A stretch of 31,135 nt of DNA, taken from IMG/VR virus record IMGVR_UViG_644736359_000006, one strand, 5' to 3'. The notes under the pieces were generated by a model, which did not search any database, was not told the DNA's origin, and worked only from the letters and a program-made list of their open reading frames with translations. Positions 9,205-26,555 of this stretch are shown piece by piece; position 1 is the first letter of the stretch; each line of letters starts with the position of its first letter. A program made the position numbers and the translations under genes. The DNA comes from a virus. Taxonomy: Duplodnaviria > Heunggongvirae > Uroviricota > Caudoviricetes.

Positions 9205-9513
9205 GTGACTCACATGACAAAAACAGTATCAACCAGTAAAAAACCCCGTAAACAGCATTCGCCTGAATTTCGCAGTGAAGCCCTGAAGCTTGCTGAACGC
9301 ATCGGTGTTACTGCCGCAGCCCGTGAACTCAGCCTGTATGAATCACAGCTCTACAACTGGCGCAGTAAACAGCAAAATCAGCAGACGTCTTCTGAACGTG
9401 AACTGGAGATGTCTACCGAGATTGCACGTCTCAAACGCCAGCTGGCAGAACGGGATGAAGAGCTGGCTATCCTCCAAAAGGCCGCGACATACTTCGCGAA
9501 GCGCCTGAAATGA
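9205..9513 (+). CDS. insE: IS3 OrfA (InsE), HTH transposase component
   Basis: ORF ...[31 protein letters not shown]... with C-terminal leucine-zipper-like region; first ATG at 9205, conventional start a few codons later. Confidence 0.85.
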
Positions 9514-10376
9514 AGTATGTCTTTATTGAAAAACATCAGGCTGAGTTCAGCATCAAAGCAATGTGCCGCGTGCTCCGGGTGGCCCGCAGCGGCTGGTATA
9601 CGTGGTGTCAGCGGCGGACAAGGATAAGCACGCGTCAGCAGTTCCGCCAACACTGCGACAGCGTTGTCCTCGCGGCTTTTACCCGGTCAAAACAGCGTTA
9701 CGGTGCCCCACGCCTGACGGATGAACTGCGTGCTCAGGGTTACCCCTTTAACGTAAAAACCGTGGCGGCAAGCCTGCGCCGTCAGGGACTGAGGGCAAAG
9801 GCCTCCCGGAAGTTCAGCCCGGTCAGCTACCGCGCACACGGCCTGCCTGTGTCAGAAAATCTGTTGGAGCAGGATTTTTACGCCAGTGGCCCGAACCAGA
9901 AGTGGGCAGGAGACATCACGTACTTACGTACAGATGAAGGCTGGCTGTATCTGGCAGTGGTCATTGACCTGTGGTCACGTGCCGTTATTGGCTGGTCAAT
10001 GTCGCCACGCATGACGGCGCAACTGGCCTGCGATGCCCTGCAGATGGCGCTGTGGCGGCGTAAGAGGCCCCGGAACGTTATCGTTCACACGGACCGTGGA
10101 GGCCAGTACTGTTCAGCAGATTATCAGGCGCAACTGAAGCGGCATAATCTGCGTGGAAGTATGAGCGCAAAAGGTTGCTGCTACGATAATGCCTGCGTGG
10201 AAAGCTTCTTTCATTCGCTGAAAGTGGAATGTATCCATGGAGAACACTTTATCAGCCGGGAAATAATGCGGGCAACGGTGTTTAATTATATCGAATGTGA
10301 TTACAATCGGTGGCGGCGGCACAGTTGGTGTGGCGGCCTCAGTCCGGAACAATTTGAAAACAAGAACCTCGCTTAG
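9510..10376 (+). CDS. insF: IS3 OrfB (InsF), DDE transposase catalytic domain, in -1 frame relative to orfA
   Basis: 288-aa ORF overlapping the orfA stop (ATGA) in the -1 frame; DDE-type core ...HTDRGGQY... Confidence 0.85.
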
Positions 10377-11672: not shown

Positions 11673-11879
11673 CTTCATTTTCACTTTCTTAAATCTAACG
11701 ACAGACGGCTAACATTTAAGTATTGTGAAATATTATCAAATGTAATCATCATTGATTTACAAAAGATACATTTTGCCCCGAAAGGATTCCTGTCAGAAAC
11801 ATCAAAAGATGATGTTCTATACTGAGAACCATGGCAACACGGGCATCTAAAGTGAATATGGTTTGTAATATTTTCTACC

Positions 11880-12092
11880 TCAAAGTGCCACAACATGAAC
11901 AGCCGCGGGGCCTTTAGGTCCGTTCTCAATACCAAATTCGACTTCCTGATTCTCAGTTAACGTTTTGAAATCGTTGCTCTGAATAGCTGAGAAATGGACA
12001 AACACATCTTTGCTACCATCTTTCGGCGTGATGAAACCAAAACCTTTTTCAGGGTTAAACCATTTCACTAAACCAGTCATTTTGTTAGACAT
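11880..12092 (-). CDS. cspI: CspA-family cold shock protein
   Basis: 70-aa product [38 protein letters not shown]... with RNP1/RNP2 motifs; long AT-rich 5' leader upstream. Confidence 0.85.
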
Positions 12093-12455
12093 CATTATTA
12101 CCTTTTGAAGAAGTTAGCCCTTGGGCAGAATGGTCCGAAAAAAAATATCAGAGAGAAAAACCAACAAGGAAATCTCAAGAGGTACAAATAATAAAATTAT
12201 AACAATGACTGCTTCAGATAATTTTGTAACAAACCAGAACACCATTAACGCATGATTAACCAACCATAGCAAGGATTACTTTTGTAAAGAAAAACACACG
12301 AATGAAACAATAGCTTTATTTATTAATAAAACGTGTCATTCTGTCTAATGACCTTTTATCTTACCCTTAAGATTTCAAGGATTTTGACTCATGGAAGAGT
12401 CCTTTTTATTTAAATTTCACATTCAGCGCTAAAAATAATCCGATTTAATATTAAT

Positions 12456-15489: not shown

Positions 15490-16758
15490 CTGATATCATT
15501 GGGGTTACACCAGGTAAGTATAGGTGGAAAATCAATATTCGCCAGTTCAACAATAAGGAAAATCTCATTGCATCACAACTATAAAACCATGTGTTTAACT
15601 CACAAAAAACAAATCATTAAACTAATCTGTTATATTATAATAGCTGCGTGCAATAATAATATTATATGCTCTTAATATTCACTTGAAATATCTTCATATA
15701 AAAACAGATTGAATAAAATCTTTTGGGGCTGGTATGTTTACCAACATTAAATTGCATCTCAATGTTTTCTTTAGCGTGAACAGGATTTTTATAAAAACTG
15801 ACACTATGAGCATCATAGCGTAGTTTTTACGATTGTAAATATCCTGCATACAGGAACTCATCACTTTCAGATGATATCGCATACAGTTAATTCACCATCA
15901 GTCTTAGAGCCAGTTCTTCCGGATAGGGATCGAAGTAATTCTGTGTAAGCAAGTAATCATTAGGATACTCACCCAGATAATGCTTCAGCAGAGTCAACGG
16001 CGCAAGAAGAGGCAATGTGCCAAAGCGATAGTTAAGTATAACCTCGCTCAACTCTTTACGCTGGCGTGTGCTTAAGTAATTACTAAAATACCCCTGTATA
16101 TGCATCAGCACATTCGTGTGATTTTTACGTGATGCTGGTTTTCTGAGAATCGCCATCAGATTATCACGATACACCTCAAAGTATGATTCAAGGTCCGCCC
16201 ACTCGTGTATTGCAGCCACAAATGGTCCCATATCTTTATAGCCTGCCTGGCTATGCGCCAACAACTGAAGCTTATAACGACTATGAAAAGCTAATAACTC
16301 TCTTCTTGATAATTTCTCCTTGTAAAGGTGATTGAGCTCATCCAAAGCAAAAACTCTTTCAATAAAATTCTCACGAAGCACTGGATCATGTAATCGCCCA
16401 TCCTCTTCAACCGGTAGCCAGGAAAACTTTTCCATCAAAGTGCTCGTAAATAGTCCCACTCCATCTTTACGACCTCGATTACCATTTTCATCATAGACAC
16501 GCACGCGCTCCATGCCACAGCTGGGAGATTTAGCACAAACCACAAACCCCGATACATCCTTTAATTTGTCCATATAAGAACGACTAAACTCTGTCATTCT
16601 CTCTGTCACATCCTCATTCTGGTCGTGGCTGAAACACATCCGTATATTTCCTTGCTTCGAGCGCACAAGTCGTAGAGCAGGACGCGGAACTGGCAGCCCT
16701 ATTGATCTTACCCAGCAATAGTGGACACGCGGCTAAGTGAGTAAACTCTCAGTCAGAG

Positions 16759-17067
16759 GTGACTCACATGACAAAAACAGTATCAACCAGTAAAAAACCC
16801 CGTAAACAGCATTCGCCTGAATTTCGCAGTGAAGCCCTGAAGCTTGCTGAACGCATCGGTGTTACTGCCGCAGCCCGTGAACTCAGCCTGTATGAATCAC
16901 AACTCTACAACTGGCGCAGTAAACAGCAAAATCAGCAGACGTCTTCTGAACGTGAACTGGAGATGTCTACCGAGATTGCACGTCTCAAACGCCAGCTGGC
17001 AGAACGGGATGAAGAGCTGGCTATCCTCCAAAAGGCCGCGACATACTTCGCGAAGCGCCTGAAATGA
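16759..17067 (+). CDS. insE: IS3 OrfA (InsE)
   Basis: Identical product to copy 1 orfA. Confidence 0.85.
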
Positions 17068-17930
17068 AGTATGTCTTTATTGAAAAACATCAGGCTGAGT
17101 TCAGCATCAAAGCAATGTGCCGCGTGCTCCGGGTGGCCCGCAGCGGCTGGTATACGTGGTGTCAGCGGCGGACAAGGATAAGCACGCGTCAGCAGTTCCG
17201 CCAACACTGCGACAGCGTTGTCCTCGCGGCTTTTACCCGGTCAAAACAGCGTTACGGTGCCCCACGCCTGACGGATGAACTGCGTGCTCAGGGTTACCCC
17301 TTTAACGTAAAAACCGTGGCGGCAAGCCTGCGCCGTCAGGGACTGAGGGCAAAGGCCTCCCGGAAGTTCAGCCCGGTCAGCTACCGCGCACACGGCCTGC
17401 CTGTGTCAGAAAATCTGTTGGAGCAGGATTTTTACGCCAGTGGCCCGAACCAGAAGTGGGCAGGAGACATCACGTACTTACGTACAGATGAAGGCTGGCT
17501 GTATCTGGCAGTGGTCATTGACCTGTGGTCACGTGCCGTTATTGGCTGGTCAATGTCGCCACGCATGACGGCGCAACTGGCCTGCGATGCCCTGCAGATG
17601 GCGCTGTGGCGGCGTAAGAGGCCCCGGAACGTTATCGTTCACACGGACCGTGGAGGCCAGTACTGTTCAGCAGATTATCAGGCGCAACTGAAGCGGCATA
17701 ATCTGCGTGGAAGTATGAGCGCAAAAGGTTGCTGCTACGATAATGCCTGCGTGGAAAGCTTCTTTCATTCGCTGAAAGTGGAATGTATCCATGGAGAACA
17801 CTTTATCAGCCGGGAAATAATGCGGGCAACGGTGTTTAATTATATCGAATGTGATTACAATCGGTGGCGGCGGCACAGTTGGTGTGGCGGCCTCAGTCCG
17901 GAACAATTTGAAAACCAGAACCTCGCTTAG
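17064..17930 (+). CDS. insF: IS3 OrfB (InsF)
   Basis: As copy 1 but ...EQFENQNLA instead of ...EQFENKNLA. Confidence 0.85.
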
Positions 17931-18299
17931 GCCTGTGTCCATATTACGTGGGTAGGATCATATAGCCATTTCCGGACATACTGGTCTGAATGTTACCCAT
18001 TCCACTAATTTGTCCATTAAAAAGTCATCTCTTTTGTGACCACCATCAAAACGAACAGCAGAACCGCCCAAACAACCGCTGATCCCAATCACAGGTTTTT
18101 TTATCATTTCCTCCCCCTTGACTAATTCATTAACACATAAACTTTGTAGTGCACGGACTAAATTGCCTTTCTGGCTTCATCACTGACAATTTTTCTGTTA
18201 TTGACTATTCCTAATATAGTAGGAAAGTTCTTTAAGTGATCGGTCGTACTCATCTATCTTTCATACTTACTCTCAACTATCAAAAGTACAGGATTTATT

Positions 18300-20623: not shown

Positions 20624-20740
20624 CAGAATCCTTCCGGATAATTAGCTCTCCCCTTTAAGGGACCATCCCTCTTATCCCTGCGCGCTACTTAAGTATTTTT
20701 GATTCTATTCCGGCACCGTCCAGAACTTCAAACGCGTTGA

Positions 20741-20769
20741 AAATAAAAACAAAAACCCGCCGAAGCGGG
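20741..20769 (-). terminator. Rho-independent terminator downstream of hok
   Basis: Stem cccgc/gcggg with cgaa loop, followed on the minus strand by UUUUUGUUUUUAUUU. Confidence 0.6.
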
Positions 20770-20839
20770 TTAAGTGCGAGTGCGTTGAGGATGCCTGCCA
20801 CATCAGAGGTGGCGAGGGATTTCTCCCTCGCCGGGTCTC

Positions 20840-20995
20840 TTACTCCTCAGGTTCGTAAGCTGTGAAGACAGCGACCTCCGTCTGGCCGGTTCGGATTCGT
20901 ACCTCGCAGAGGTCTTTCCTCGTTACCAGTGCCGTCACTATGACGGTTAAACAGATGACGATCAGGGCGATTAACATCGCCTTTTGCTGCTTCAT
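20840..20995 (-). CDS. hokD: Hok-family type I toxin
   Basis: 51-aa product MKQQKAMLIALIVICLTVIVTALVTRKDLCEVRIRTGQTEVAVFTAYEPEE; in-frame upstream extension (mok-like) in the ORF track; AAGGAGAAG RBS. Confidence 0.85.
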   Translation of the reverse strand: MKQQKAMLIALIVICLTVIVTALVTRKDLCEVRIRTGQTEVAVFTAYEPEE

Positions 20996-21607
20996 AGCCT
21001 GCTTCTCCTTGCCTTTCGGCACGTAAGAGGCTAACCTACATGTGTCTAGCATGAAATTGGCCTCAGATTAATGTTAAGCGTCTTGCAGGACGCGTAATGT
21101 TAACTGGGGCTTTTCTCTATCTGCCGTTGGTGTTCATGCCCGAGGCAGATAGCCTCAAGCACCCGCAGCCATTCTACTTAACTACCGTTACCTCTCCAAT
21201 ATGAAATCAATCAGAAAGGTGATCCATAAGAACAATAACAAGACAATAAATTGCCATTACAGCCACAATAGCCAGCGTGCATTTGAGAACCAGCACATAA
21301 ATCTCCTGCTCTTGACGTATACAGGCACTGATAAATATGTGTCTTCGTGCTCGTTACTTCAATACGTAAGCGTCAGTTGCGCGTAATCAAATCAGACAAC
21401 CGACTTTAAACCAGGGACAAACAGCAGGTAAAATAATCAAACGTTATTTTAAGCCATATCATGGCTGCAAGATTTCCTCTAATTTCAACAAGATGAGCAG
21501 GTCATTGCTTGCACTGATGACCTGCTCATTAATCATGATTATTTGAAAATTAAGGTAGGCGTACTATATATAGAAACACTGCTACGCTCCGTTGGCATAA
21601 TATAAAA

Positions 21608-22294
21608 TCATTCCTGGCCTTCTTTACCGTAGTGGAGTTGACCAATTTTGATTAGAGGGCGTCCCTGAGATTTGCGGTGTAGATTGGTATCGCGCAGTGA
21701 ATACACGCAGCCACAATATTCCTGCTGATAGAATTGTTCGCGCTTGCTGATTTCAATCATGCGGGAAGAGCCGCCCTGCTTTCGCCAGTTATAATCCCAG
21801 TACACCATGCCCGGATAATACGCGACGGCTCGCCGTCCACAGTCGTTAACCTGCTGCATATTTTTCCAGCGTGAAATGCCCAGTGAGCTACTGATCACAC
21901 TGAAACCATTTTCAGCGGCATACAGCGCAGTCCGCTCAAAACGCATGTCAAAACACATGGTACAACGGATCCCTCGTTCAGGCTCCCATTCCATTCCTTT
22001 GGCTCGCTCAAACCAGTTGTCTGTGTCGTAATCAGCATCAATAAATGGCACGCCGTGTTGTTTAGCAAAGCGAATATTCTCATCCTTACGAATTAAATAC
22101 TCTTTCTGAGGATGAATGTTCGGGTTGTAGAAAAAGATGGTGTAGTCGATTCCCGAGGCCTGAAGCGCCTCCATCACTTCACCGGAACATGGAGCACAGC
22201 AAGAGTGCAGTAATAGTTTTTTTGCCCCGTTTGGGAGCTCCAATTTGGGGCGTTTGAAATCAGCAACAGTCATAAATGTGTTTATGAGGTTCAT
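21608..22294 (-). CDS. QueH-like (DUF208) epoxyqueuosine reductase homologue
   Basis: Motifs [12 protein letters not shown] near the N-terminus and [10 protein letters not shown] near the C-terminus; start codon uncertain (ATG 22294 or 22273, or GTG 22387), none with a clear RBS. Confidence 0.5.
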
Positions 22295-22326
22295 GAAAAT
22301 AGCAAAAAGTGTAGCATCAGAACGGG

Positions 22327-22560
22327 CTATCGGAAACAGATGTCTAAATCTGGTAATGTCTGCTTTTGATGCAAAGCAGACAACCACGGCAGCGCACGAA
22401 AATCAGCTATAATGTCGGGATTAATAATCGGGTGACGTCCATCACATAGCGAATGTTCCTCTTTCCTGATATCGCTAAATATCGACCATTCGTCATTCTT
22501 ATCGAACCAGAGCATGCGACTGCCACAGCACATGTCGAGAATGGTAGCCGATGTACTCAC
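22327..22560 (-). CDS. Small ORF with DMCCGS motif, possibly 5' part of a frameshift-split gene
   Basis: GTG start overlapping the upstream stop (GTGA) with GAGGTGA RBS; product ...[19 protein letters not shown]...; frame overlaps the QueH-like frame by ~60 nt. Confidence 0.3.
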
Positions 22561-22979
22561 AGCATCACCTCCCGATAATTCCCCTGATAAAACGTCAGAA
22601 CACGCTGCATAACTTCGCTCTTCCGGCACTCGCGACAGATTATGTTTAGACGACTGTCGTAGCGGCGTATTTCTCCATCAGGTAATGACCAGATAAGGTC
22701 CGGATCAACCACAGCAGGTTTCTTCACCTTTGCCCTCGAGAGTTTTTTGCGGGCGTTTTGCCAGTCCTTACGCGCCTGTTCAGACGGGAATAACCCGTAG
22801 CCGGAGTTGTATACATCGCCACTGGCTACCAGCTCTCTGGCAAGAACGCTCATCAGATATCTAGTCGCACCTGTTTTAGCTTCCAGTTGCCGTAACGTCT
22901 CACGACCGCTCTGGCGCACGAGTTCCACCACCTGCCCTTTAATTTTTTCCCGCTCTTCTTGTGTAAAAACTTTTGCCAC
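22557..22979 (-). CDS. Hypothetical protein, possible DNA-binding
   Basis: 140-aa basic ORF with C-terminal ...ICRECRK... cysteine pair; family not recognised. Confidence 0.45.
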   Translation of the reverse strand: MAKVFTQEEREKIKGQVVELVRQSGRETLRQLEAKTGATRYLMSVLARELVASGDVYNSGYGLFPSEQARKDWQNARKKLSRAKVKKPAVVDPDLIWSLPDGEIRRYDSRLNIICRECRKSEVMQRVLTFYQGNYREVML

Positions 22980-26327: not shown

Positions 26328-26380
26328 TTTTCTGGTGACGTTTGGCGGTATCAGTTTTACTCCGTGACTGCTCTGCCGCC
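26328..26380 (+). ncRNA. dicF: DicF small RNA
   Basis: Sequence tttctggtgacgtttggcggtatcagttttactccgtgactgctctgccgcc followed by gttttt matches the 53-nt DicF with its 3' terminator hairpin. Confidence 0.85.
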
Positions 26381-26555
26381 GTTTTTAAAGTGAATTTTGT
26401 GATGCGGTGAATGCGGCTAAGCGCACGCGGAACAGTTAAAACCAAAAACAGTGTTATGGGTGGATTCTCTGTATCCGGCGTTAATTGTTAACTGGTTAAC
26501 GTCACCTGGAGGCACCAGGCACTGCATCACAAAATTCATTGTTGAGGACGCGATA

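Follow-up and report, generated by a model that had tools for sequence, protein, structure and literature searches.

Escherichia coli must import vitamin B12 or its precursors, so that QueG, the enzyme of the last step of queuosine (Q) formation in transfer RNA (tRNA), relies on imported cobalamin. QueG is a cobalamin/[4Fe-4S] enzyme (PMC5175355), and QueH has been described as its non-orthologous, cobamide-independent replacement (PMC5372724, PMC6461909). Queuosine status tunes the decoding of NAU and NAC codons, and links with biofilm formation, virulence and stress phenotypes have been reported (PMC10570037, PMC9508795). Here we have examined a queH gene that a Qin-type lambdoid prophage carries between its replication genes and its Q antiterminator. 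The prophage is contained in a stretch of 31,135 nt of viral DNA (Caudoviricetes; IMG/VR record IMGVR_UViG_644736359_000006), referred to below as the window, whose numbering is used throughout. Neither the enzyme family nor the reaction is new, and databases already name the exact protein; what is new is the context of the gene and not its mechanism. Full-text literature searches turned up no study of queH on phages or prophages in E. coli, nor any discussion of what such a gene means for the B12 dependence of queuosine. We consider it probable that queH is an accessory cassette gene whose product would make the conversion of epoxyqueuosine (oQ) to Q in host tRNA independent of cobalamin.

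The gene encodes a full-length, intact and separately encoded QueH, whose match to the family is far beyond chance. In a Pfam profile search, the mechanically called open reading frame (ORF) at 21608-22387 of the minus strand, 259 codons counted from a GTG and with both QueH cysteine motifs inside, matched PF02677 (QueH, DUF208) at 219.5 bits (E 4.3e-65; gathering score 23.5), its residues 58-232 covering positions 1-174 of the 175 in the profile. The first-pass annotation, made from the letters alone, had proposed QueH/DUF208 homology on the basis of the cysteine motifs, and this search bore the proposal out. The crystallised QueH of Thermotoga maritima (7LC5, chain A) was also matched, with residues 20-196 aligned at E 7.9e-22. 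We aligned the window protein with that of Thermotoga and with 80 relatives found in other species; the six cysteines that it has in common with the Thermotoga enzyme, C25, C26, C104, C107, C187 and C189 (numbering of the 221-residue protein), were invariant in 82 out of 82 sequences. C29 was present in all 81 proteobacterial sequences compared and is replaced by Asp in Thermotoga QueH. In E. coli B REL606, whose DNA is 100% identical to the window over the 1401-nt query region, RefSeq annotates an 'epoxyqueuosine reductase QueH' (WP_021568046.1) with the same coordinates. An NCBIfam scan of QueH, of the methyltransferase stub that precedes it and of the neighbouring DUF977 protein returned no family at E <= 0.01, and the family call rests therefore on Pfam, PDB and RefSeq naming.

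The queH gene was widespread in E. coli without being part of its core genome, as the first-pass annotation had surmised. Its DNA was detected in 1047 of 5426 complete E. coli genomes, 985 of which cover at least 80% of the gene, and a contiguous match to a query made of DUF977 and queH was obtained in 958 of the 5426. Carriage amounts to ~18% of complete E. coli genomes from unrelated lineages, including ST131, O157:H7 and O104:H4, while K-12 lacks the gene in its Qin prophage. The same arrangement as in the B-type prophage is found, at 99.6% identity, in HannyBb, a 45-kb phage isolated on E. coli, where queH is labelled 'hypothetical protein'. Close relatives of the protein are encoded by 189 IMG/VR viral contigs, and the family is present in PHROGs as phrog_3217, with 'unknown function'. 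Each of the two main E. coli alleles occurs on at least 1000 public contigs and is named QueH by NCBI and UniRef. The gene is hence a common occupant of its slot that RefSeq and UniRef have already named, and not the novelty for this prophage family that had initially been supposed.

Outside phages, 302 plasmids carry queH, mostly of IncF types from Klebsiella and E. coli, and in Scandinavium, Serratia and Enterobacter an 81-92% identical gene lies among ordinary chromosomal genes. This chromosomal setting in other genera makes the phage queH look like a captured housekeeping gene of other Enterobacterales. The gene was near iron-uptake genes in the two plasmids inspected. Non-phage copies adjoin a gene for a TonB-family protein, fecC/fecE and tonB in Klebsiella pHNGS471-3, Salmonella pCFSAN024441_02 and the Serratia chromosome. 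Such a neighbourhood is suggestive, as it fits an iron-dependent enzyme, and it may represent the donor context of the mobile cassette.

Phage and prophage copies were intact without exception (88 out of 88, with lengths of 221-222 residues). The 22 phage-borne nucleotide alleles gave only 7 protein variants, 50 of the polymorphic sites being synonymous and 9 non-synonymous, and the pairwise ratio of non-synonymous to synonymous substitution rates (dN/dS) against the window allele ranged from 0.03 to 0.08. These values indicate strong purifying selection on the QueH protein. Positional variability of the leader across the phage copies was set aside, as a 1-nt indel confounds it. Separately, a distant queH (~69% nucleotide identity) on the E. 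coli plasmid pZ1323HEC0393-2 (L089, 2319-2693) is a frameshifted and truncated pseudogene lying between insertion sequence (IS) fragments, which implies that not every mobile copy of queH is maintained.

The host resembles E. coli B REL606, in which queA, tgt and queG are all intact. The first two imply that the substrate, oQ-tRNA, is made in the host, and the third that a B12-dependent reductase is already there. In our reading, Rac/Qin-type lambdoid phages acquired a small cassette, formed by a leader of ~115 nt and the coding sequence, in the slot that follows the DUF977/LygF gene. In the E. coli B-type prophage this cassette was joined into a phage DNA methyltransferase gene, of which a dead N-terminal stub of 56 residues is left. 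The product is predicted to be an iron-sulfur, cobalamin-independent epoxyqueuosine reductase. We infer that it is active in vivo and that, in a lysogen, it would convert the oQ34 generated by host Tgt and QueA on tRNA-Asp, tRNA-Asn, tRNA-His and tRNA-Tyr into Q34. QueH would in this way duplicate the B12-dependent QueG and free the last queuosine step from imported cobalamin, which would be its benefit to the lysogen. Transcription in the lysogen would start at the cassette's own extended -10 promoter, and during lytic growth read-through from the early rightward operon would be added after induction. A tRNA-modification moron, one of the two roles envisaged in the first-pass annotation, is the best reading.

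Table 1. Coordinates of the features of the queH locus in the window.
Feature	Position	Strand	Details
queH coding sequence, epoxyqueuosine reductase QueH	21608-22273	-	221 aa, ATG start, TGA stop; Pfam and RefSeq
queH 5' leader, upstream part of the mobile cassette	22274-22388	-	115 nt; travels with queH
Extended -10 promoter-like element TGcTACACT	22308-22316	-	Candidate; transcription start predicted at ~22301
Extra ~372-nt segment between the queH stop and hok/sok	21230-21601	-	Alignment with ST131 and O157 copies
Recombination joint between methyltransferase remnant and queH cassette	22389-22393	.	Three-way DNA alignment
Truncated phage DNA methyltransferase (DMCCGS ORF)	22327-22560	-	GTG 22560 to TAG 22327, 77 aa, contains ILDMCCGS
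DUF977/LygF (Ren-like) gene, upstream neighbour that defines the slot	22557-22979	-	Pfam DUF977, 101.6 bits; phrog_142

The boundaries of the coding sequence were deduced from comparison with relatives (Table 1). The ATG at 22273 is the RefSeq start in REL606, and an equivalent Met starts the relatives in Scandinavium, Kluyvera, Enterobacter and Symbiopectobacterium, whose upstream DNA is otherwise unrelated; an in-frame ATG placed 21 nt further up, at 22294, is destroyed in the Klebsiella plasmid copy. Judged by this conservation, 22273 is the true start, and the real coding sequence consequently does not overlap the upstream ORF, the TAG at 22327 and the ATG being 53 nt apart. No Shine-Dalgarno sequence was present before either of the two candidate ATGs. 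Of the early remark that the ORF had no convincing start codon or ribosome-binding site, the second half was right and the first was not.

Homology of the leader to the prophage copies of ST131, O157 and E. albertii begins at ~22388, and its proximal ~70 nt are also common to the Klebsiella IncF plasmid copy. Within it, the block ...CCGATAGC.C.G..CTGATGCTACACT is invariant between phage and plasmid copies. A TGCTAnnnT motif was found 39-49 nt ahead of the start codon in 13 Enterobacterales relatives with otherwise unrelated flanks, and it occurred in 19 of 79 loci, compared with a background of 5% in random windows. A consensus scan called neither a canonical sigma-70 promoter nor a terminator for queH; the extended -10 element escaped it because its -35 region is weak. 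Cross-species conservation, on which this assignment is based, suggests that the element is queH's own promoter. We also considered a preQ1 riboswitch in the leader, which has 'GCUACAC' in common with some of these riboswitches, and rejected it, as an Rfam search of 20700-22700 matched the leader to no family, preQ1 riboswitches included; its hits were limited to sok and to matches at chance level. At the 5' edge of the cassette, beside the recombination joint, there is a perfect 10-bp inverted repeat, TGTCTGCTTT gcatca AAAGCAGACA (22357-22382). It is degenerate in the ST131-type copies, and we claim no function for it as a recombination or terminator signal.

Downstream of the queH stop codon, the segment of ~372 nt listed in Table 1 is unannotated; it is part of the B-type prophage, occurs in 117 genomes and is absent from the ST131/O157-type copies. 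RNA folding predicted in it a terminator-like hairpin at 21495-21527, with a stem of 13 bp and followed by TCTTGTTG, 80-120 nt past the queH stop and exclusive to the B-type prophage. The terminator scan missed this hairpin because its loop is longer than 8 nt. Together with TCTTGTTG, it may act as a queH terminator.

The slot occupied by the cassette is fixed. We inspected six chromosomal contexts in Rac/Qin-type prophages (REL606, O157:H7 Z1813, ST131 MB1341, AH19B041, O104:H4 C227-11 and GPEC1356), and in all six queH lies directly 3' of the DUF977/LygF gene and is followed by hok, DUF968 or nin-type genes and then by the Q antiterminator. The earlier placement of the gene in the nin region was a fair description of this position. 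The equivalent slot contains relB, relE, ydfV and flxA in the Qin prophage of K-12 and a longer methyltransferase in phage PhiR42_1. In the O157:H7 Z1813 prophage (L004, 5851-7861), a Dcm-type cytosine methyltransferase and a restriction endonuclease of the NgoMIV family lie directly after queH in the place of hok/sok, and this points to the slot as a general cargo hotspot.

Elsewhere in the window, the same prophage carries a second nucleobase/tRNA-related cargo, namely a 2-thiouracil desulfurase (PF04463) and DUF1722/YbgA gene at 15887-18107, which is split by an IS3 copy (~16768-17930); a second copy of the same IS3-type ORF pair, of 102 and 288 aa, is located at 9205-10376. Above the Rfam gathering score we found the sok antitoxin RNA (115 bits, 20990-21164), overlapping the 5' region of mok/hokD, the DicF small RNA (72.5 bits, 26330-26381) and a cspA-type thermoregulator 5' untranslated region (109.8 bits, 11834-12250), all of them expected in a Qin-type prophage. 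No tRNA genes were found in the window.

Immediately upstream of the cassette, the DMCCGS ORF is a dead remnant and not a working enzyme. Its homologous part comprises only 22394-22560, about 56 residues of the region of S-adenosylmethionine-binding motif I. Residues 3-61 match phrog_954 and phrog_11564, in the former case over positions 50-108 of 229 only, and residues 6-60 match PADLOC MTase_II over positions 3-64 of 169 only; a Pfam scan of this ORF gave no hit. The RefSeq entry for the stub is a pseudogene, 'methyltransferase, missing C-terminus'. In PhiR42_1 a longer version (118 aa) follows the same LygF gene, with the catalytic DPPH downstream, and tblastn for the C-terminal half in all frames of the whole window gave no hit better than E 0.2. 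A three-way DNA alignment located the joint precisely. Similarity to the PhiR42_1 methyltransferase ends at ...GATTTTCGTGC (~22394; protein end ...ADFRA), and similarity to the queH cassette begins at CGTGGTTG (22388), the same DNA preceding queH in ST131, O157:H7 and E. albertii prophages that lack the methyltransferase piece. The last ~21 codons of the DMCCGS ORF are read-through into the queH leader. Here the ORF shares 61 nt (22327-22387) with the mechanical 5' extension of the QueH ORF, which is read in a different frame, in agreement with the ~60 nt noted on first inspection.

It had been suggested from this overlap that a frameshift or a sequencing error in 22327-22390 might have split a single gene into the DMCCGS and QueH ORFs. 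The shared strand and the 61-nt overlap of the two ORFs, and the lack of a Shine-Dalgarno sequence before the QueH ORF, would fit this idea. However, no upstream sequence is needed to fill the QueH profile (positions 1-174 of 175), and a read error is excluded by the occurrence of the identical arrangement in an isolated phage and 71 complete genomes; for these reasons we reject the split gene, which we regard as highly improbable. Indeed, 958 genomes carry queH with the same leader and without the methyltransferase piece, the methyltransferase homology stops at the joint, the half with DPPH was recovered in none of the frames, and RefSeq treats the stub as a C-terminally truncated pseudogene. 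Among the homologues we saw no continuous methyltransferase-QueH ORF, the relatives beginning at the equivalent Met. The 61-nt overlap arose by accident at the recombination joint. The adjoining methyltransferase fragment could also be taken as a sign that QueH belongs to a 7-deazaguanine DNA-modification or anti-restriction function of the phage, the other role envisaged at first. Phages do use early queuosine-pathway enzymes on DNA (PMC6884629), and in one O157 prophage queH is followed by a type II restriction-modification pair. Yet DpdA/TGT-like proteins, FolE, QueD, QueE and QueC were all absent from the RefSeq annotation of the whole prophage and from Pfam scans of its unnamed ORFs, and QueA, QueG and QueH have not been reported in the phages with such systems that were analysed (PMC6884629). 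A PADLOC search gave no match for QueH, leaving a role in a defence system unsupported, and the protein is so close to the chromosomal housekeeping QueH of other Proteobacteria (75-92% identity) that there is little scope for a new substrate. We give a DNA-modification role practically no credence.

Two further possibilities accept QueH as a tRNA enzyme and differ in whom it serves. It could act for the phage, being transcribed with the early-right (nin) operon after induction and keeping host tRNAs fully Q-modified during phage translation. The gene has the orientation of the replication-to-Q transcription unit and lies inside it, is carried by the isolated phage HannyBb and is kept intact in many prophages. 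On the other hand, its conserved promoter-like element is its own and is also found before chromosomal, non-phage copies in other genera, the same cassette resides on IncF plasmids, which have no lytic cycle, and a lytic cycle of ~1 h would leave tRNA turnover little time to have an effect. Such a role is compatible with our best explanation and does not exclude it; as an explanation of the locus we find it unlikely. Alternatively, queH could be a housekeeping gene which, once captured, is silent or of no use in E. coli, since QueG suffices there, and several observations that favour this passive hitch-hiking weigh at the same time against our proposal of a cobalamin-independent backup. Host queG is intact, so that QueH is redundant whenever B12 is available. 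Neither a canonical promoter or terminator nor a Shine-Dalgarno sequence accompanies the gene. In favour of passive carriage, one plasmid copy has also decayed into a pseudogene. In BL21, BL21-AI, C41(DE3), Rosetta2-DE3, NEBExpress and C3029, a single 1.36-kb deletion of 21322-22682, with a 2-nt overlap at the junction, takes out queH completely, together with the methyltransferase stub and the 3' end of DUF977 on one side and 286 nt downstream on the other, while REL606, ATCC 11303 and other B strains keep this region, so that the two standard B lineages differ in queH. We know of no report of a consequence of this loss in BL21, nor, to our knowledge, has a physiological difference between oQ-tRNA and Q-tRNA been established. 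In addition, part of the purifying-selection signal between divergent alleles could be older than the capture of the gene by the phage. Against a useless passenger stand the integrity of all 88 phage-borne copies, the 50 synonymous versus 9 non-synonymous sites among 22 alleles and 7 protein variants with their dN/dS of 0.03-0.08, and the presence of the gene in ~18% of complete E. coli genomes from unrelated lineages. We judge passive carriage to be quite unlikely, a little more so than a lytic role.

Under the proposal of a cobalamin-independent backup, QueG's need for imported cobalamin in E. coli means that a mobile QueH would remove a nutritional dependency of translation strain by strain. 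The balance of the evidence leans slightly towards a lysogenic conversion of the translation machinery, in which prophage QueH in about one fifth of E. coli strains frees queuosine maturation from B12. If this is true, queH-positive lysogens, REL606, ST131, O157:H7 and O104:H4 among them, would still have their tRNA fully modified with Q under cobalamin shortage or after loss of the BtuB receptor, for instance under phage or colicin pressure, and K-12 and BL21 would accumulate oQ under those conditions. tRNA modification would then be a strain-variable phenotype determined by a phage, and QueH the first described phage-borne enzyme of the tRNA-specific steps of queuosine synthesis. Since REL606 and the classic B strains have queH, and the BL21 derivatives and K-12 do not, results on oQ and Q need not transfer between these backgrounds. 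The list of lambdoid cargo genes would gain a tRNA-modification enzyme, and phrog_3217, listed as unknown, would gain a predicted function.

How the locus relates to described systems can be summarised as follows. With the QueH family, represented by T. maritima 7LC5, the window protein shares the full profile, the CCAP(C/D), CxxC and CGC motifs and a similar length, and it is 75-92% identical to chromosomal QueH of Serratia, Erwinia, Enterobacter, Pseudomonas and Sphingomonas; it differs in being carried by a temperate phage or prophage, and also by IncF plasmids, in a host already equipped with QueG. Host QueG is found in the same genome and is predicted to share with QueH both the reaction and the tRNAs, but it belongs to an unrelated family, needs vitamin B12 and is core and chromosomal rather than mobile. 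The phage 7-deazaguanine clusters (DpdA with FolE, QueD, QueE and QueC) draw on the same biosynthetic pathway family; unlike them, the locus described here lacks those genes, and QueH acts after the base has been inserted into tRNA. Closer in organisation are the lambdoid morons and the cargo of the replication-to-Q slot, such as relBE, ydfV and flxA in K-12 Qin, or hok/sok. Like these, queH is present or absent at a fixed position in syntenic prophages and forms a compact unit that has a putative promoter of its own and is dispensable for phage growth, although its product is a tRNA-modification enzyme and not a toxin-antitoxin, exclusion or virulence function. Finally, the proposed logic is that of the MetH/MetE pair, in which a cobalamin-free enzyme backs up a cobalamin-dependent one (PMC6461909), with the difference that the queH backup travels on a mobile element and varies from strain to strain.

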